Positions 1 through 10,902 of a DNA stretch of 10,902 bases are shown one piece after another. The first letter of the stretch is position 1. The number at the start of each line of letters is the position of its first letter. The stretch is taken from the NCBI GenBank assembly GCA_048622675.1, contig JBMCUI010000053.1:1-10902 (forward strand). The letters are read 5' to 3'. The notes under the pieces were generated by a model. That model was given only the letters and a program-made list of their open reading frames with translations. It did no database searches and was not told the DNA's origin. Origin of the DNA: Spirochaetota bacterium. GTDB taxonomy: Bacteria > Spirochaetota > B62-G9 > DRHN01. The position numbers were made by a program, and so were the translations under genes.

Positions 1-438
1 GTTCTGGATAACAACTACAGAAAGCAGAAAGAAAGGGCTGTACTTAACCGAAGGCTGGAGGTAAGAAAAAGTGTGCTTCAGACCAGGCAGAAATGGATGG
101 ACAAAGCTTTTTCTAAAGCCTATCAGCGCCTGATAGACCAGCCCCTTTCCGAATACAGCGATTGCGTGAAAAGTTTGATCAGCAAGGTCTCCTCCAGCCA
201 GGATGAACAGGTGGTTTTTGGGACCAAGGGGGAGGATGATTTTCTAAAAAATTTGATTGACGAGCTCAACAGGGAGAAGGGAGCAGGTTTCAGCCTTGCC
301 CCGGAACGGGGTAATTTTTCCTGGGGCTTTACTTTGAGAAAAGGTAAAGTTGAAACAAACATGTCTATCAACAGCCTTTTCCGGTATAAACGAGATGATT
401 TGGAACAAAAAGCCTGGGAGCTGCTCAATGCTGAGTGA
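1..438 (+). CDS. atpE: A/V-type ATP synthase subunit E (5'-truncated by window edge; C-terminal ~146 aa present)
   Basis: Open frame runs from position 1 with no upstream stop, reaching TGA at 436-438. It lies first in a conserved E-C-F-A-B-D rotary ATPase cluster. The charged, coiled-coil-type sequence fits a peripheral-stalk subunit E. The call rests mainly on position and size. Confidence 0.7.
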   Translation, partial: VLDNNYRKQKERAVLNRRLEVRKSVLQTRQKWMDKAFSKAYQRLIDQPLSEYSDCVKSLISKVSSSQDEQVVFGTKGEDDFLKNLIDELNREKGAGFSLAPERGNFSWGFTLRKGKVETNMSINSLFRYKRDDLEQKAWELLNAE

Positions 439-3528: not shown

Positions 3529-4971
3529 ATGATAAAGGAGTACAATACAGTTCGAGAGATCGTAGGCCCTCTTATGCTGGTCGGAGAGGTGGAAGGGGTA
3601 ACTTACGAAGAACTGGTTGAGATAGAGTTGCCCGGTGGAGAGACCAGAAATGGAAGGGTCCTGGAGGTAAACGGAGATAAAGCTCTGGTCCAGTTGTTTG
3701 AAGGAACAATCGGTGTCAATGTCTATGACACTACAGTCAGGTTCAAAGGAAAAGGAATGGAGCTGGACGTCTCAGAAGATATAATGGGAAGAATATTTGA
3801 TGGTCAGGGCCGGCCTGTTGACCAAGGCCCCAAGATTATTCCGGAAAAAAGACTTAACATAGGCTCAGCCCCCATTAATCCCTATGCCAGGGACTATCCC
3901 TCCGAGTTTATTCAGACCGGTATATCGACCATTGATGGACTGAATACTCTGGTCAGAGGCCAGAAGCTGCCCATCTTTTCAGGAACCGGTCTTCCTCATG
4001 CCCAGATGGCTGCCCAGATAGCCAGACAGGCAAAGGTACTGGCAACCGGTGAAGAATTTGCGGTGGTATTTGCCGCTATGGGAATAACATTTGAGGAAGC
4101 ACAGTACTTTGTACAGGACTTTCAAAAGACCGGGGCTATAGAGAGGTCTGTGCTTTTTGTAAACCTGGCTTCCGACCCAGCTGTTGAGAGGATAGCCACT
4201 CCCAGGCTGGCTTTAACTGCAGCAGAGTATATGGCATTTGAAAAAGATATGCATGTGCTGGTTATACTGACAGATATGACCAACTACTGCGAGGCATTGA
4301 GGGAGGTGTCTGCAGCGCGCCAGGAAGTCCCTGGCAGACGAGGATATCCAGGGTACCTGTACACAGACCTGGCATCGATTTATGAGAGAGCGGGCAGAAT
4401 ACGGGATAAAAAAGGTTCTATTACCCAGATCCCTATTCTCTCCATGCCGGAGGATGATAAAACCCATCCCATTCCAGACCTTACCGGATATATTACTGAG
4501 GGCCAGCTGGTGCTCTCCAGGGCCACTCACCGGCGTGGAATTTATCCTCCTGTTGATGTGCTTCAATCACTTTCGCGTCTGAAAGACAAGGGAATCGGGG
4601 CCGGAAAAACCCGCAAAGACCATGCAGATGTGTTCAACCAGTTGTTTGCAGCTTATTCCAATGGTCTTGAAGCCAGAGAACTTGAAGTAATACTCGGTGA
4701 AGCTGCACTTTCTGAAACTGATAAAATATACTACCGTTTTGCAGAAACATTTGAGAAGAGGTACATTGCTCAGCAGCCCACCGAGGAGAGGAGTATTGAA
4801 CAGACTCTTGATCTGGGCTGGGAGCTTCTTTCCACCTTGCCCACATCAGAATTGAAGAGGATAAGACCGGAGTTTATCGAAGAGTTTCTTGCCAAATATA
4901 AGAAAGAAAAAAAGCCGGAAGAAGAGAAAGCAGAAGAACAAAAAGAAAAAGAGGCGGAAGAGGTTTCCTGA
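3529..4971 (+). CDS. atpB: A/V-type ATP synthase subunit B (non-catalytic), 480 aa, with ~25-aa Lys/Glu-rich C-terminal tail
   Basis: ATG abuts the atpA TAA, with GGAGG 7 nt upstream. Conserved B-subunit motifs '[20 protein letters not shown]' and '[18 protein letters not shown]' are present in place of a canonical P-loop. The tail '[25 protein letters not shown]' extends past the usual end of the family. Confidence 0.95.
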
Positions 4972-5794: not shown

Positions 5795-6541
5795 TCACCA
5801 GGTTGGGGGGGAGGTGGTTACCACCTCCAGCCAGGGCCCATCCGGCACGTCCTTGAAGTCTACAAACTTCCAGCTTGTGTAATCGTTGTCTTCCATTCCC
5901 AGGTATTGGAAGCAGGCTGGAGATATATCCAGTCCTACCCCCCCGTTTCGTTTATTTTTGGGCCTTTTTTTGCCGAATACATATTCCCAGTCATCTACTT
6001 CAAATGGCCCCACATCCTCCCACTGAGCGTAGCATACCTTTCCCCGGTAGATGATCCTGATCCACCTGTTTTTACAGTAGGATATTGGAGTAAACACGTA
6101 ACTGTGATTTATTTTTTTTGCCCAGGGGATAATTTCCAGCACCTGCTGTTTATGGTCCTGGTGCTGTATATCGTTATAGGGCAGGGCGCAGTAGAAGGGA
6201 TTTTCTTCCGGGTAGAAGTCTGCCGGAAAGTATCCGTTTCTTTTATCAGGGTGGTCTACTCCACCGTAAGACTCTATCCAGTGTTCCGTCCATGCACTGG
6301 AGCCGTTGTCCAGTACCCCTGACCTGGTAACATCATGCTGTCCAATGTAAAAATAGGTGGTCTTTATGTCACGGTGAACATAATACTCTGGGACCCGTTT
6401 GTTGTCTTCTCCGGGCCCGGGTAGTTTTGATGGGGATTGAGAAGGTTTTTGCTGGGTTGTTTTTACCAAGCTCCTGCATGAAACTACCACCATAAGAACT
6501 GCCGCTACCATCAAGAAGTTCTGCACCAGGGTTCTTAGCAT
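5795..6541 (-). CDS. Secreted putative lipoprotein, 248 aa, with a Trp/Tyr/Asp-rich domain; possible RlpA/expansin-like double-psi beta-barrel
   Basis: GGGAGG SD lies 6 nt upstream of the ATG (minus strand). The N-terminus 'MLRTLVQNFLMVAAVLMVVVSC' is a signal peptide with a lipobox-like VVSC, followed by a Pro/Ser/Gln-rich linker. The C-terminal half 'NRWIRIIYRGKVCYAQWEDVGPF...GGVGLDISPACFQYLG...KFVD' resembles the RlpA/DPBB pattern (V.V.DRGPF...IDLS.AA..LG...V.V), judged from memory only. Confidence 0.6.
   Translation of the reverse strand: MLRTLVQNFLMVAAVLMVVVSCRSLVKTTQQKPSQSPSKLPGPGEDNKRVPEYYVHRDIKTTYFYIGQHDVTRSGVLDNGSSAWTEHWIESYGGVDHPDKRNGYFPADFYPEENPFYCALPYNDIQHQDHKQQVLEIIPWAKKINHSYVFTPISYCKNRWIRIIYRGKVCYAQWEDVGPFEVDDWEYVFGKKRPKNKRNGGVGLDISPACFQYLGMEDNDYTSWKFVDFKDVPDGPWLEVVTTSPPTW
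5810..5828. terminator. GC-rich hairpin GGAGGTGG-TTA-CCACCTCC at the convergent atpD / lipoprotein gene junction; possible bidirectional termination or RNA-stability element
   Basis: Perfect 8-bp stem with a 3-nt loop. It lies inside the last codons of the minus-strand lipoprotein gene. On the minus strand it is followed by a C-run, then ATTTTTTAT. On the plus strand a T-run sits just after the atpD stop at 5702-5708. Confidence 0.25.
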
Positions 6542-6942
6542 TCTTTTCCTCCCGCATTGTGAACTGTTCTTTACCTGCTTTCTGGAACTTTATCCAGAGA
6601 TATTTGCATCAATAGTTTATGAGCTGAAATGCACCTTTTAGATAAAGGAAGGAGATACACGCGGATACACCAGAATATAATAGGTAAAATCATGCAGGCA
6701 AAGAATAATTTACCTGGACTTGTCTGACTATGTTTTTTCTCAATCAAACCAATAATTATTTTCCATAATCTGATACTCATTAATTGAAATAGGTCAATTT
6801 TCATTTGACCACAGAAGACATGCGCTTTATTGTAATTATTAAAATACTGGGAGGAGAAGGCGGAGTATTGATATTTTTAATATCCGAAGGTAACGTATAG
6901 ATAACAGCTGAAAATACACCATAGATTAAGGGGGGTAAAAAA
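6542..6942. promoter_or_regulatory. ~400-bp AT-rich divergent intergenic/promoter region between the lipoprotein gene (-) and the encapsulin operon (+)
   Basis: AT content is much higher than the flanking coding DNA. The flanking genes are divergently oriented. AT-rich TATA-like stretches occur at ~6867-6886 and ~6893-6909. The minus-strand 77-aa ORF at 6571..6804 was considered and set aside. Confidence 0.5.
6792..6810. promoter_or_regulatory. Perfect inverted repeat GGTCAA-N7-TTGACC; candidate operator for a dimeric transcription factor
   Basis: 6-bp arms at 6792-6797 and 6805-6810 are exact reverse complements across a 7-nt AT spacer. The site lies ~135 bp upstream of the ferritin-like cargo gene start. 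Confidence 0.35.
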
Positions 6943-7317
6943 ATGCCGGAGTTTGTGAATCCTTTCAGTGGTTTGGTACCTGAACGGAAGATGAACAAAG
7001 AGGAGTTGATTCGGGCTATACGGATGAACCTGGCTGCAGAACACGAGGCGGTGCATCAGTACATGGCCCATGCTCAGGCCACGGATGATGCTCTTGCCAG
7101 GAAGGTATTGATTGACATAGCCGATGAAGAGCGGGTGCATATAGGTGAATTCCAGAGGCTTCTTCAGATTTTAACAGGCGATGAAGAGAAAATGCTGGAA
7201 GAGGGAGCAAACGAGGTGGAAGAAATGATAGAGGAGATTAACAGTGATAAAGCTGGTAATTCAGCCTCTTCCAATGAAAAACCTGACAGTGATACAACCA
7301 TAGGTGATTTGAAGTAG
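6943..7317 (+). CDS. Encapsulated ferritin-like protein (Flp/EncFtn-type cargo) with C-terminal encapsulin-targeting peptide, 124 aa
   Basis: SD 'AAGGGGGG' precedes the ATG, which is the first ATG after an in-frame TAG. Two ExxH motifs ('EHEAVHQY' and 'EERVHIGEF') spaced ~30 aa apart are typical of the di-iron ferroxidase site of encapsulated ferritins. An acidic/Ser-rich flexible linker ('EEGANEVEEMIEEINSDKAGNSASSNEKPDSD') is followed by the terminal 'TTIGDLK'. That terminus matches family-1 cargo-loading peptides (cf. T. maritima Flp 'GGDLGIRK' and the '..IGSLK' type). The gene lies immediately upstream of the shell gene. Confidence 0.8.
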   Translation: MPEFVNPFSGLVPERKMNKEELIRAIRMNLAAEHEAVHQYMAHAQATDDALARKVLIDIADEERVHIGEFQRLLQILTGDEEKMLEEGANEVEEMIEEINSDKAGNSASSNEKPDSDTTIGDLK

Positions 7318-7376
7318 TTTGGGCAGAGGTTTCTGGCAGTCCAGAATCAATTTTATTAAAACCGAGGAGGTAGTGT

Positions 7377-8165
7377 ATGGGCAACAAGTATATTGGCAGA
7401 GAGGATGCCCCTCTTGAGGAAAAGATATGGGAAATGCTGCAAAAAACTATGATTGAGTCTGCAAAAAGTGTTCTTTCAGGAAGGCGAATACTTCATGTAG
7501 AGGGGCCGTACGGTTTTGGGGTCAGCTCAGTGCATGTTGAAGACTATGAGGTTGAACCTGGGGTTATATCCAGCAGGTCTTTGCCCATGGTACATATTCA
7601 TAAAAGCTTTTCTGTTCCCAAGAGGCAGCTTGCCGCATATGAGGACCAGGGAGTTATGCCTCCGGTAAAAGAAGCAGCTCAGACCGCCAGGGAGTGTGCT
7701 TTTATGGAAGATGGGCTGATATTTCATGGTAAAAAGGACCTGCCAGGGCTTTTACATACCAGGGGCGTGAACAAGATAAGTCTTTCCCCCTGGGAGCAGG
7801 TAGGAAACGCTGCTAACGATATTATTAAGTGCATCACCAAGCTTGACTCAATGGGGTTTCACGGGCCTTATTCACTGGCGCTGTCTCCGGAACGCTACAA
7901 CATGCTGTACCGGATATATGAACGGGGTAGTATGAGCGAAATAGAACACCTCAAAAGTATTGTGAAAGAGGGAATATTCAAGGCCCCGGTACTGAAAAAC
8001 GGGGGTGTCATGGTCTGTCCTGTGCCACACATGACCTCCATTACTCTGGGACAGGATATGCAGATTGGATTTATAGGGCCTACAGCAGACGAAATGGAGT
8101 TTTATATATCTGAGAGTATTGCCCTGAACCTGCAACTGCCCCAGGCTGTTTGTATACTGGAATAA
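7377..8165 (+). CDS. Family 1 encapsulin nanocompartment shell protein (HK97 fold, linocin M18-like), 262 aa
   Basis: GAGGAGGT SD lies 8 nt upstream. The protein aligns by eye along its length with T. maritima encapsulin. 'LEEKIWEMLQKTMIESAKSVLSGRRILHVEGPYGFGVSSVHVEDYEV' corresponds to '[47 protein letters not shown]'. 'GFHGPYSLALSPERYNML' corresponds to 'GIEGPYTLVINTDRWINFL'. The C-terminal 'LGQDMQIGFIGP...' corresponds to 'LGQDLSIGYEDR...'. Length is typical (~265 aa). Confidence 0.88.
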   Translation: MGNKYIGREDAPLEEKIWEMLQKTMIESAKSVLSGRRILHVEGPYGFGVSSVHVEDYEVEPGVISSRSLPMVHIHKSFSVPKRQLAAYEDQGVMPPVKEAAQTARECAFMEDGLIFHGKKDLPGLLHTRGVNKISLSPWEQVGNAANDIIKCITKLDSMGFHGPYSLALSPERYNMLYRIYERGSMSEIEHLKSIVKEGIFKAPVLKNGGVMVCPVPHMTSITLGQDMQIGFIGPTADEMEFYISESIALNLQLPQAVCILE

Positions 8166-8195
8166 CTCAGGAAATGTTATGGTTCTGGGGGTATT

Positions 8196-10902
8196 TTACC
8201 ATATCATTTTTTTAAGTGTGTTCTGAAGCACCCCTCCGTTGCGGTAATACTCCAGCTCAAACGGGGTGTCAATCCGGGCCCTCACTTTGAAGCTGAAAGA
8301 AGGTTTTTCCTGGGCTGGGTCATTGTGGACAGTTACTTTTAGTTCCTGGGCTGGAGTTTTCACCGGACCTATTGTGTACACTTCTTTTCCGCTTAAACCC
8401 AGGGTGGAGGCATTTTCTTTTTCCATGAACTGAAGGGGCAGCACCCCCATTCCCACCAGGTTGCTGCGGTGTATACGTTCAAAGCTTTCAGCTATCACTG
8501 CTTTTACTCCCAGAAGTGCTGTTCCTTTGGCAGCCCAGTCCCTGGAGCTTCCTGTTCCATATTCCCTGCTGGCGATGATTATCAGGGGGGTTTGGTCGCC
8601 CTGGTATTTCACGGCAGCATCGAATACAGAGGTTTCCTCTCCGGTGGGTAAATAGATAGTATACCCTCCTTCCAGGTATCCCACCAGTTTGTTCCTTATC
8701 CTGATGTTTGCGAAACTCCCTCTTGCCATCACCTGGTGGTTCCCTCTTCTGGCCCCGTAGGTATTGAAGTCTTCAGGTTCCACCCCCTGTTCCATAAGCC
8801 ACCTGCCGGCAGGGCTTTGTTGGCTGATGGCACCTGCAGGGGATAGATGGTCAGTTGTGACAGTGTCTCCCAGCAACAGGAGAACACGGGCGTTCTCTAT
8901 TTTTCCTTTACAAAGGGGGGCTTCTAAATCATCAAAGAAGGGAGGCTTCCGGATATAGGTGGAGCTGGCATTCCAGGAGTAGACCTTTCCAGAAGGTGCA
9001 CTTAGCTGGTCCCACATCCGGTTTCCACAGAGCGCCCGGGAGTATTCCTCCTGATAAAGATCGGTGTGAAGATATGTATTTTGCAATGATTCGATTTCAT
9101 CACTGGAAGGCCAGATATCATTCAGGTAAACCCCCTTTCCGTTTGGATCAAATCCCAGAGGCTGGCGGGAAAGGTCGATGTTCATGGTCCCGGCAATGGC
9201 ATATGCCACCACCAGGGGAGGAGAAGCAAGATAGTTTGCCTTTACCAGGGAGTGAATCCGTCCTTCAAAGTTGCGGTTTGCTGAAACCACTGAAGCTACC
9301 ACCAGGTTTTTTCCTTCAACTTCTTTTTTCACCAGGGGGCCGAGCTCTCCGCTGTTTCCGATACAGGTGGTGCACCCATAGCCCACCACGTGGAATCCAA
9401 GGGCTTCCAGGTATCCAAGCAGACCGGAGTTTCTGAGATATCTGGTTACTACTCTGGAGCCCGGTGCCAGACTGGTCTTAACATACCACACCGGCCGGAC
9501 TCCCAGCTCGACTGCCTTTTTTGCCATCAGTGCGGCTGCAAATATAACCGATGGGTTGGAAGTATTGGTGCAGCTGGTTATGGCAGCTATTACCACGCTG
9601 CCGTGAGTAAGCTCAGCATGTTTACTTTGCTCTGGGCCTTCTGGGAAGCTGTCCTGATAAACATTATTTGTGTTATAGTTTACACTTCCAGCTTGTTTGT
9701 GTTCTACGGTTTTTGAGTGCTTTTGCGGGTGTTCTTTTTTAATCATTTCCGTAAACTTTGTTTTTGCTTTGTGTAAGGGAATATAATCATGAGGGCGTTT
9801 GGGCCCGGCTATACAGGGGGAGACCTCTCCCATATCCAGCTCCACTATCTGGTTGTACAAAGGTTGAGGTGAGTCTTTGCCCCTGAAAAGTCCCTGGGCT
9901 TTAGTGTACGCTTCTACCAGACTTACCTGCTGGTCTTCTCTGCCGGTAGTGGTCAGGTAGGAGAGGGTAGTCCGGTCCACCGGGAAAAAGGTGACAGTAG
10001 CACCATATTCAGGGCACATGTTCGATACAGTGGCCCTGTCCGCCAGGCTCAGTGTATCCACTCCCGGCCCAAAAACCTCTATCATCTTTCCTACCACCCC
10101 TTTTTTTCTAAGCAGTCTGGTTATGGTCAGCACCAGGTCTGTTGCAGTTGTACCCTCCGGGAGCCTGCCATCCAGTCTGAGTCCAATGACCTGGGGAAAG
10201 GGGATGTACACAGGCACTCCCAGCAGGGCTGCCTCGGCTTCTATTCCTCCTACTCCCCATCCCAGCACTCCCAGCCCGTTTATCATGGTGGTGTGGGAGT
10301 CAGTTCCAAGAAGAGTGTCGGGAAATGCCACCGGTTTATTATTTTGGTTGTCCGTGCGGACTACTTGTGCAAGATACTCCAGGTTTACCTGATGGATTAT
10401 ACCTGTACCTGGAGGAATCACCCGAAAATTACTGAAAGCATCAGAGCCCCATTTGAGAAAACGGTACCTTTCAGCGTTTCTCTCATACTCCAGCCGGGTA
10501 TTGCATTCCGGTGCCCTGAGGGTACCGTAACAGTCCACCTGGATGGAGTGGTCAATTACCAGGTCTACCGGAATACAGGGGTTTATGGTATCCGGGTCCA
10601 TGTTGTAACGGGCTACAGCATCTCTCATGGAGGCCAGGTCAACCACTGCCGGAACTCCGGTAAAGTCCTGCATGATGATTCGCGATGGCAGAAAAGGGAT
10701 CTCTTTCCCGGGGTTGTTATGTTGAGTTTCTTTTCCGGACCGGCTGTTGTCCTTTGAATTATCAATTTCTTGCACCCATGGTCCCAGCAGCAGTATGTGT
10801 TCTTCCTTAATCAGACTGCCGTCTGCTTGTCTTAACATGGACTCCAGCAGCACTCTTATTAAGAAAGGCAGCCTGGAGATATCTATACTGTAGTGTTTTT
10901 CC
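8196..10902 (-). CDS. acnA: Aconitate hydratase A (aconitase; [4Fe-4S] enzyme), N-terminus beyond window end
   Basis: The minus-strand frame is open to the window edge: '...EKHYSIDISRLPFLIRVLLESMLRQ' continues upstream of the GTG the ORF track uses as start. Conserved AcnA blocks are present: 'IIMQDFTGVPAVVDLASMRDA', the Cys ligand regions 'ITSCTNTSNP' and 'GCTTCIGNSG', and 'SANRNFEGR'. At least ~900 aa are present. TAA stop at 8196-8198. Confidence 0.92.
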   Translation of the reverse strand, partial: EKHYSIDISRLPFLIRVLLESMLRQADGSLIKEEHILLLGPWVQEIDNSKDNSRSGKETQHNNPGKEIPFLPSRIIMQDFTGVPAVVDLASMRDAVARYNMDPDTINPCIPVDLVIDHSIQVDCYGTLRAPECNTRLEYERNAERYRFLKWGSDAFSNFRVIPPGTGIIHQVNLEYLAQVVRTDNQNNKPVAFPDTLLGTDSHTTMINGLGVLGWGVGGIEAEAALLGVPVYIPFPQVIGLRLDGRLPEGTTATDLVLTITRLLRKKGVVGKMIEVFGPGVDTLSLADRATVSNMCPEYGATVTFFPVDRTTLSYLTTTGREDQQVSLVEAYTKAQGLFRGKDSPQPLYNQIVELDMGEVSPCIAGPKRPHDYIPLHKAKTKFTEMIKKEHPQKHSKTVEHKQAGSVNYNTNNVYQDSFPEGPEQSKHAELTHGSVVIAAITSCTNTSNPSVIFAAALMAKKAVELGVRPVWYVKTSLAPGSRVVTRYLRNSGLLGYLEALGFHVVGYGCTTCIGNSGELGPLVKKEVEGKNLVVASVVSANRNFEGRIHSLVKANYLASPPLVVAYAIAGTMNIDLSRQPLGFDPNGKGVYLNDIWPSSDEIESLQNTYLHTDLYQEEYSRALCGNRMWDQLSAPSGKVYSWNASSTYIRKPPFFDDLEAPLCKGKIENARVLLLLGDTVTTDHLSPAGAISQQSPAGRWLMEQGVEPEDFNTYGARRGNHQVMARGSFANIRIRNKLVGYLEGGYTIYLPTGEETSVFDAAVKYQGDQTPLIIIASREYGTGSSRDWAAKGTALLGVKAVIAESFERIHRSNLVGMGVLPLQFMEKENASTLGLSGKEVYTIGPVKTPAQELKVTVHNDPAQEKPSFSFKVRARIDTPFELEYYRNGGVLQNTLKKMIW

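Follow-up and report, generated by a model that had tools for sequence, protein, structure and literature searches.

Among the described encapsulin systems, that of Myxococcus xanthus belongs to family 1 and consists of the shell protein EncA and the ferritin-like cargo proteins EncB and EncC (PDB 4pt2, 7s20, 7s2t, 7s8t, 7s5c). It forms T=3 shells (T, triangulation number) and uses several cargos (EncB, EncC and EncD), some of which are encoded away from the shell gene. The encapsulin of Thermotoga maritima (maritimacin, 3dkt and 7kq5) has a shell protein of 265 amino acids, and its ferritin-like cargo Flp is encoded upstream of the shell in a two-gene arrangement. The shells of Quasibacillus thermotolerans (T=4, 6nj8) and Bacillus methanolicus (9fy6) form iron-storage compartments from 282-amino-acid subunits with a long E-loop, and their cargo is IMEF, a four-helix bundle that lacks an ExxH motif and is restricted to Firmicutes (PMC11202242). 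In Pyrococcus furiosus (2e0z, 5n5e) the encapsulated ferritin (EncFtn) domain forms the N-terminal part of one polypeptide with the shell and, as a consequence of this fusion, carries neither linker nor targeting peptide. The EncFtns of Rhodospirillum rubrum (5da5) and Haliangium ochraceum (5n5f) serve as the biochemical references. Here, we describe a locus on contig JBMCUI010000053.1 of GenBank assembly GCA_048622675.1, a metagenome-assembled genome (MAG) that is labelled "Spirochaetota bacterium" at NCBI. The complete contig of 10,902 bp was analysed and is referred to as the window. It very probably contains a two-gene operon encoding a family 1 (classical) encapsulin shell together with an EncFtn of the FLP-TP class as cargo. 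The system is an uncharacterised addition to a well-known type, the family 1 Flp/EncFtn encapsulins, and is partly annotated already in the source record, in which the exact shell protein is named family 1 encapsulin shell protein by NCBI.

The cargo gene (6943..7317, forward strand) starts with ATG and encodes an encapsulated ferritin-like protein of 124 amino acids that is EncB/EncC-like; the shell gene (7377..8165, forward strand) also starts with ATG and encodes the shell protein of 262 amino acids. Both genes are separated by 59 nucleotides (nt). A preliminary description of this DNA had placed the two open reading frames (ORFs) within 6943-8165, and both were found there, together with all the motifs it had quoted; those of the cargo are E35-A-V-H38 and E63-R-V-H66, an acidic and serine-rich tail and T-I-G-D-L-K (nt 7297-7314). 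Direct reading of the sequence shows a Shine-Dalgarno-like element, AAGGGGGG, at 6928..6935 (+), 7 nt ahead of the cargo ATG, and the Shine-Dalgarno sequence GAGGAGG at 7364..7370 (+), 6 nt ahead of the shell ATG. The start codons are further backed by N-termini that are kept across homologues, MPEFVNPFSG for the cargo and M-x-NKY..RED for the shell. The same gene order is present in the independent Logan assembly of run SRR21542050, and the arrangement in the window is therefore no chimera.

The assignment of the shell protein is carried by several concordant comparisons. It matches Pfam PF04454 (Linocin_M18, "Encapsulating protein for peroxidase") with E=6e-67 and 226 bits (cut-off 24.3) over model positions 2-253 of 253, and the NCBIfam equivalog NF041155 (encap_f1, "family 1 encapsulin nanocompartment shell protein") with 219.2 bits (cut-off 100) over positions 2-261 of 261. 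In a sequence search of the PDB it matched 37 distinct solved encapsulins, with Q. thermotolerans 6nj8 as the best match (4.7e-40), followed by M. xanthus EncA (6.7e-35) and T. maritima (4e-16). An AlphaFold2 model built from 94 homologues reached a mean predicted local distance difference test score (pLDDT) of 87.1 and a predicted template modelling score of 0.85, and it shows the N-terminal helix, a β-hairpin E-loop and parts of the P- and A-domains. All top 50 Foldseek matches of this model in the PDB are encapsulin shells (template modelling (TM) scores 0.77-0.85, E-values down to 1.5e-27), and the protein is thus predicted to carry the HK97 encapsulin fold. The expectation of a Linocin_M18/HK97-fold profile match that had been formulated for the 262-amino-acid protein was strongly borne out by Pfam, NCBIfam, PDB and Foldseek alike. 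The proposed similarity to the T. maritima encapsulin along the protein also held: the motifs VEGPYG, HGPYSL and LGQDMQIG are all present and line up in a MAFFT alignment with the same motifs (VEGPYG, GPY[ST]L, LGQD[LM].IG) of the T. maritima protein, the sequence used for comparison being identical to 3dkt_A. With T. maritima the window shares the two-gene order with the cargo upstream, the shell size (265 versus 262 amino acids) and the predicted HK97 fold (TM 0.83-0.84). The closest solved shells, both by sequence and by Foldseek rank, are those of Q. thermotolerans and B. methanolicus, with which the window's system would share a function as iron-storage compartment.

The cargo protein passes the NCBIfam model NF058679 (EncB_fam, encapsulin ferritin-like cargo) over its full length with 123.8 bits (cut-off 90). 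Among PDB sequences it is closest to M. xanthus EncC (7s8t, 9.4e-14), followed by P. furiosus EncFtn (5n5e, 2.8e-12), EncB being matched as well, and a profile of the cargo family reaches EncC with E=3e-19. EncC, the best solved relative, can be aligned from the N-terminal NPF..LVP.RKM via both helices to the C-terminal peptide, which is LTVGSLR in EncC and TTIGDLK in the window. An AlphaFold2 model with a mean pLDDT of 81, rising above 90 over both long helices, predicts a half-ferritin: two long helices at residues 19-46 and 50-78 are followed by a helix at 80-105 and a disordered tail from residue 105 onwards, so that the ferritin-like helical domain (residues 19-105) corresponds to 6997..7257 (+). 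Nearly all top 50 Foldseek matches of this model in the PDB are encapsulated ferritins, including EncFtns from six organisms, with P. furiosus EncFtn as the top structural match. A half-ferritin fold is shared also with R. rubrum and H. ochraceum EncFtn (target-normalised Foldseek TM 0.63-0.73). Profile, PDB and structure searches thus agree with the earlier suggestion that the protein belongs to the ferritin-like/EncFtn proteins. At NCBI it is named "Rubrerythrin", a vague name that is explained by its Pfam matches, which lie below the gathering thresholds for Mn_catalase (24.2 versus 27) and Rubrerythrin (20.8 versus 22.8) and cover half of each domain.

For R. rubrum EncFtn it was shown by mutagenesis that iron in the ferroxidase centre is coordinated by E32, E62 and H65 (PMC11202242). 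In an ungapped alignment with P. furiosus EncFtn (5n5e), residues E33, Y40, E63 and H66 of the window's cargo correspond, with an offset of one residue, to E32, Y39, E62 and H65, and the same spacing is found in R. rubrum and H. ochraceum. The four residues are invariant in 28 homologues. Accordingly, E33 (7039-7041), E63 (7129-7131) and H66 (7138-7140) are putative ferroxidase ligands, with Y40 (7060-7062) close to them, all on the forward strand. This alters one part of the preliminary description, which had ascribed two ExxH ferroxidase motifs to the protein: E63-x-x-H66 is canonical, but E35-x-x-H38 lies outside the described centre and the second contribution is the single glutamate E33. 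An EncFtn monomer provides one Glu and one ExxH, and the full site is formed across the dimer interface, which is why "two ExxH" needs correction. E35-x-x-H38 together with H34 and H43 is nevertheless invariant or nearly so within the window's clade, in which helix 1 of the cargo carries the histidine-rich motif A-A-E-H-E-A-[VI]-H-x-Y-M-A-H (nt 7039-7071, residues 33-43). EncC and P. furiosus EncFtn read E-L-D-A-I-N-L-Y at this stretch, so that the helix-1 sequence ELDAIN of EncC stands opposite EHEAVH..YMAH in the window, and the extra E35, H38 and H43 fall outside the ferroxidase centre as described. The EncFtn family also contains members without linker or targeting peptide, i.e., P0238 (Methanothrix, 71 contigs), P0185 and P0222, which are 72-76% identical over the helical domain. 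They resemble the "s-FLP" class, and whether proteins of that class are encapsulated is a matter of debate.

Cargo proteins of the FLP-TP class were described to possess a disordered C-terminal domain of 10-40 amino acids (PMC11202242), and the linker and helical architecture of the window's cargo agrees with this description. The linker, rich in Asp, Glu, Ser and Asn, comprises residues ~105-117 (7255..7293, +), pLDDT being below 50 over residues 105-124, and it differs in length and sequence between homologues. It leads to the candidate targeting peptide T118-T-I-G-D-L-K124 (7294..7314, +), which is a conserved C-terminal motif: T-[IV]-G-x-[LM]-[KR], usually plus one residue, is present in 117 of the 120 best cargo homologues, x being Ser in 111 of these 117 and Asp in just two, of which the window is one. 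The published consensus for targeting peptides is L(F)-X1-V(I)-X2-X3-L(I), with G, T or S at X1 and GS or GT at X2X3, and another minimal motif, LXI(L)X, is given by the peptide of T. maritima (PMC11202242). The window's peptide agrees with the published consensus in having T at X1, I at V/I, G at X2 and L at the last position. The family profile aligns it to the EncC peptide LTVGSLR, which was resolved on EncA with its Val and second Leu in the hydrophobic pockets P2 and P3 and its terminal basic residue in an ionic contact (PMC10402063); the corresponding I, L and K anchors are kept. On the side of the shell, the N-terminal helix builds, together with the P-domain, the peptide-binding site in family 1 (PMC11664910). 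In the window's shell the N-terminal helix with its adjoining segment spans residues 15-40 (7419..7496, +; model helices 15-30 and 35-38) and holds K30, R36 and H40. The EncA side chains that touch the peptide are R28, R34, D38, D213 and D243 (PMC10402063), and these correspond by alignment to K30, R36, H40, E198 and D227 in the window. Two of the five contacts are identical (R36 and D227, both invariant in the clade), two are conservatively replaced and one differs, so that four of the five are conserved or conservatively replaced.

Related loci were collected with an alignment-based scan using one genome per species, since a scan of reference genomes with the single shell sequence returned no relatives. 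The scan yielded 80 loci from at least six phyla. Bacterial hosts are Anaerolineae, Dehalococcoidales, Thermoflexales, Pseudothermotoga, Atribacterota, Bipolaricaulota and a Deltaproteobacteria MAG, and methanogen hosts are Methanothrix, Methanoregula, Methanosphaerula and Methanolinea. In all 80 loci an EncFtn gene with a C-terminal targeting motif immediately precedes the shell gene and shares its strand, as the single cargo gene does in the window, in difference to the dispersed cargos of M. xanthus and to the fused protein of Pyrococcus, from which the window differs by its two separate genes and its presumably peptide-mediated loading. Together with the profile matches and the models, this gene order upholds the proposal of a two-gene encapsulin operon with ferritin-like cargo. 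The branch to which the window may belong appears to be widespread in anaerobes, i.e., in Chloroflexota, Thermotogota, methanogens, Atribacterota and here in Spirochaetota, and it would be characterized by shells of 262-263 amino acids with the shortest E-loop among the shells compared and a kinship closer to T=3/T=4 than to T=1 shells, as well as by an EncFtn with the extra invariant helix-1 motif E-H-E-x-x-H..Y..H. No member of this compact, short-E-loop clade is among the solved structures found here, and the top-ranked literature on encapsulins in Anaerolinea, Methanothrix, Pseudothermotoga and other hosts contained no characterised member. Recurrent neighbours in the 80 loci are superoxide reductase (25 loci), ferritin-like/rubrerythrin proteins, 1-Cys peroxiredoxin, DJ-1/PfpI, a flavodiiron protein and a cytochrome-b5/VIT1-family protein. 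These constitute an oxidative-stress toolkit of anaerobes and support a role in iron and oxidant detoxification. Five loci from Pseudothermotoga/Thermotogota (L020, L024, L026, L028 and L033) carry the window's clade (48-52% identical) and not the T. maritima type (26.5%), from which it follows that Thermotogota host two quite different family 1 EncFtn systems.

Family 1 encapsulin systems are known for their patchy distribution and for horizontal acquisition (PMC8346489). The nearest relatives of the window's shell are 53-55% identical, with no spirochaete among the nearest named ones, and the closest named relatives of the V-ATPase A subunit encoded on the same contig (74-75% identity) are all Spirochaetota. 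Given this patchy occurrence and the disagreement between the nearest relatives, the pair was probably acquired horizontally a long time ago. A recent acquisition, judged by composition, was rejected as the guanine-plus-cytosine (GC) content of the pair (0.44-0.49) is not distinct from that of its flanks (0.45-0.52).

By analogy to the characterised homologues from R. rubrum, H. ochraceum, T. maritima, M. xanthus and P. furiosus, the following mechanism can be proposed. The 124-amino-acid cargo would form antiparallel dimers, the interface of which would be a symmetric di-iron ferroxidase centre built from E33, E63 and H66 of each chain, and five of these dimers would assemble into a ring-shaped decamer. 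The disordered linker (~13-20 residues) would present the C-terminal TTIGDLK, by which the cargo would be trapped while an icosahedral shell is built around it from 60 (or 180/240) subunits. Fe2+ might then enter via the shell pores, be oxidised by the cargo with O2 or H2O2 and be laid down as ferric mineral inside the compartment. In this clade, which is associated with anaerobes, the likely role of the system is the removal of Fenton-active iron and of oxidant during oxygen exposure, combined with iron storage.

Several observations weigh against this assignment. With the older model TIGR04535 (ferrit_encaps) the cargo scores 91.3 bits and does not reach the threshold of 125; it is a member of the EncB/EncC-like branch and not of the branch underlying TIGR04535. 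Neither phmmer with the cargo nor the family profile detected R. rubrum or H. ochraceum EncFtn at E<=1e-3, and both were reached by the fold search only, at ~20% identity. The targeting peptide, which the preliminary description had regarded as matching known cargo-loading peptides, is a conserved family motif and aligns with that of EncC, but the first L/F anchor of the published consensus, i.e., the Leu that fills pocket P1 in M. xanthus, is missing and replaced by Thr, as it is absent from the clade-wide motif T-[IV]-G-S-L-[KR]. In addition, X3 is Asp, where Ser or Thr is listed (PMC11202242) and where EncC and nearly all relatives have Ser. In the shell pocket, the position of EncA D38 is occupied by His40. 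The shell has no close relative, the nearest being 55% identical among 5.8 billion proteins, so that any function proposed for this lineage is carried over from distant homologues. Homology is the basis on which shell assembly, cargo loading, ferroxidase activity and mineralisation are ascribed to the system.

It was considered whether the shell could stem from a degraded HK97-type prophage as its major capsid protein, with an unrelated small gene upstream. The HK97 fold is common to encapsulins and phage capsids, which are often confused (PMC8346489), and the absence of the pair downstream of the V-ATPase operon in three related spirochaete contigs would fit a mobile origin. However, the curated equivalog threshold for family 1 shells is reached, the top structural and sequence matches are all encapsulins and include no phage capsids, the 10.9-kb window contains no terminase, portal, protease, scaffold or tail gene, the GC content is not anomalous compared to the flanks, and the upstream gene is an EncFtn with targeting peptide throughout the related loci, which together leave this explanation a negligible probability. 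That the cargo instead acts as a free cytosolic di-iron protein of the rubrerythrin or Mn-catalase type, its Asp-containing tail perhaps no longer able to bind the shell, is suggested by its NCBI name and weak Pfam matches, by the two positions at which its peptide departs from the consensus and by the existence of relatives within the family that lack the peptide, such as P0238 (Methanothrix). These Pfam matches are, however, sub-threshold and partial, the encapsulin-cargo model NF058679 is passed, linker, peptide and adjacency to the shell gene are intact, and the predicted half-ferritin of two long helices would need dimerisation to form its metal site. Moreover, the relatives with a similarly altered peptide at loci L087 and L015 are still paired with shells carrying the same Pro-Pro loop (see below), suggesting that the interaction was kept and not lost, and a free cytosolic cargo is accordingly judged to be highly improbable. 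About equally improbable is a functional coupling of the encapsulin to its neighbours, either by protecting or supplying iron to aconitase or by co-regulation with the V-type ATPase. Aconitase is an oxidant-sensitive 4Fe-4S enzyme and physical adjacency speaks for such a link: the other ORFs of the contig encode V/A-ATPase subunits, one lipoprotein-like protein and aconitase, the V-ATPase operon ending ~1.2 kb upstream of the pair and the convergent aconitase gene lying 30 nt away. Yet, none of the 80 related encapsulin loci has a V-ATPase subunit, aconitase or the lipoprotein-like 248-amino-acid ORF within 6 kb, and in three related spirochaete contigs the V-ATPase operon is present in full and is followed by three different, unrelated downstream regions without encapsulin. 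As aconitase is encoded on the opposite strand and an oppositely oriented gene separates the V-ATPase operon from the pair, there is no shared transcript. The functional link was therefore rejected, and the location beside a bioenergetic operon and an Fe-S enzyme, which had been highlighted as unexpected, is best read as coincidence.

A further alternative accepts the two-gene encapsulin operon with its EncFtn cargo and differs in the size of the particle: with T=3 or T=4 the compartment would be larger (32-42 nm) and would act as a high-capacity iron store. In sequence the shell is indeed nearer to the T=4 shell of Q. thermotolerans (35% identity) and the T=3 shell of M. xanthus EncA (32%) than to the T=1 shell of T. 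maritima (26.5%), for which the E-value is also far weaker; the best Foldseek matches are T=4 and T=3 shells, and the cargo is closest to EncC, which loads into a T=3 shell. On the other hand, 262 amino acids is the size of T=1 shells, and the E-loop β-hairpin (residues ~51-70, 7527..7586, +; model strands 51-60 and 63-70) is unusually short, being in the multiple sequence alignment 16 residues shorter than in Q. thermotolerans and M. xanthus and still ~8 residues shorter than in T. maritima. The T number has been attributed to the E-loop's conformation (PMC11664910), and that of EncA is altered by cargo and by point mutations in the pore (PMC10402063); among the PDB entries listed by Foldseek, EncA is represented with T=1 as well as with T=3 and T=4. 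Structure comparison was discarded as a means to call the T number because T=1 shells cover the same range of TM-scores as T=3/T=4 shells (0.80-0.85 in both groups). The T number is therefore not callable from sequence: the ~20-24 nm T=1 particles anticipated in the preliminary description are supported neither way, with kinship pointing to T=3/T=4 and the short E-loop pointing in the other direction. We retain a mild preference for T=1 and regard the larger compartment as possible, though the less probable outcome.

Returning to the loading interface of the proposed encapsulin pair, the unusual peptide is accompanied by an unusual shell loop. Pro-Pro at shell positions 95-96 (7659..7664, +), in the loop following the P-domain helix where the clade consensus is Leu-Asp/Asn, occurs in three of 82 cargo/shell pairs, namely in the window, L087 and L015. 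Exactly these three pairs carry a G-[D/N]-[LM] peptide in place of G-S-L, which none of the other 79 does. The sites concerned are cargo D122 (7306-7308) and shell P95-P96 in the window, L087:3001-4199 and the L015 shell at 5995-6792. The match between Pro-Pro and Asp/Asn has naive odds of ~1 in 90,000 if kinship is ignored. The backbone of EncA N105 contacts the peptide from the neighbouring protomer (PMC10402063), and the loop with residues 95-96 aligns three to four residues past this position. The three shells, which share ~47% mutual identity, cluster in a neighbour-joining tree, weakly (43 of 200 bootstraps), and the co-variation may therefore be a single ancestral event. It could reflect one such event or real co-evolution of the cargo-loading interface. 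The wider reading, that the window belongs to a structurally uncharacterised anaerobe branch of family 1 encapsulins in which a small sub-lineage including the window has rewritten the contact between peptide (G-S-L to G-[D/N]-L) and shell (Leu-Asp to Pro-Pro), is speculative and considered rather unlikely.

Upstream of the cargo gene, a promoter-like site (TTGACC, a 17-nt spacer and TATTGT; 6805..6833, +) lies ~110 nt ahead of the start codon. It matches the consensus weakly, and with two promoter-like sites in 6500-8300 versus 3.4 expected from shuffled sequences it is not significant alone. Its -10 element is overlapped by a PerR/Fur-type 7-1-7 inverted-repeat-like box, TTGTAATTATTAAAA (6830..6844, +), which is the sole match in the window, with at most two mismatches, to TTATAATNATTATAA, the consensus of the PerR box of Bacillus subtilis. 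The box has two mismatches to this consensus; 0.06 matches are expected and at least one was obtained in 11 of 200 shuffles. As it is located in an AT-rich spacer and none of the 80 related loci has a comparable box ahead of its cargo gene, a PerR/Fur operator is a weak lead only. The hairpin in the intergenic region (7331-7346) was rejected as an attenuator or processing site, because the 66-nt RNA folds no better than shuffled sequences (z=0.48; 140 of 200 at least as stable). No Rfam family reached its gathering score anywhere in the window, including the 400-nt upstream region.

The remaining genes of the contig show some features of their own. The 248-amino-acid ORF (5795-6541, reverse strand), which is divergent from the encapsulin pair, starts with a lipoprotein-like N-terminus (...AAVLMVVVSC). 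It matched no Pfam or NCBIfam model at a threshold as lax as E<=10, and neither the 80 loci nor the three spirochaete contigs contain a homologue. For the aconitase AcnA (8196-10902, reverse strand) the frame is open to the contig end and profile alignments begin at model position ~46; hence the gene is cut by the contig end and the listed GTG "start" at 10853 is an artefact. With the C-terminal part of subunit E from the related spirochaete contigs, the 121-amino-acid ORF at 73-438 (+) shares 55-60% identity. These contigs contain the full operon I-K-E-C-F-A-B-D and the window begins inside it, which shows that its V/A-type ATPase operon is 5'-truncated. Subunit B has a low-complexity, Lys/Glu-rich C-terminal tail (4900-4971) and comprises 480 amino acids versus 466-468 in the three spirochaete contigs.

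The chief value of these findings lies in annotation, as the protein now named "Rubrerythrin" should read encapsulin-associated ferritin-like (EncFtn) cargo protein. Furthermore, the pair extends to a spirochaete MAG a clade known here otherwise from Chloroflexota, Thermotogota and methanogens. Encapsulin engineers may take an interest in the T number that this compact clade with its short E-loop adopts, and the combination of an Asp/Asn peptide with a Pro-Pro loop, which may interest them as well, could point to a determinant of cargo-loading specificity. If the change of the interface is real and compensatory, nature would here provide an orthogonal pair for cargo loading, and shells of the clade might assemble with an unexpected geometry.

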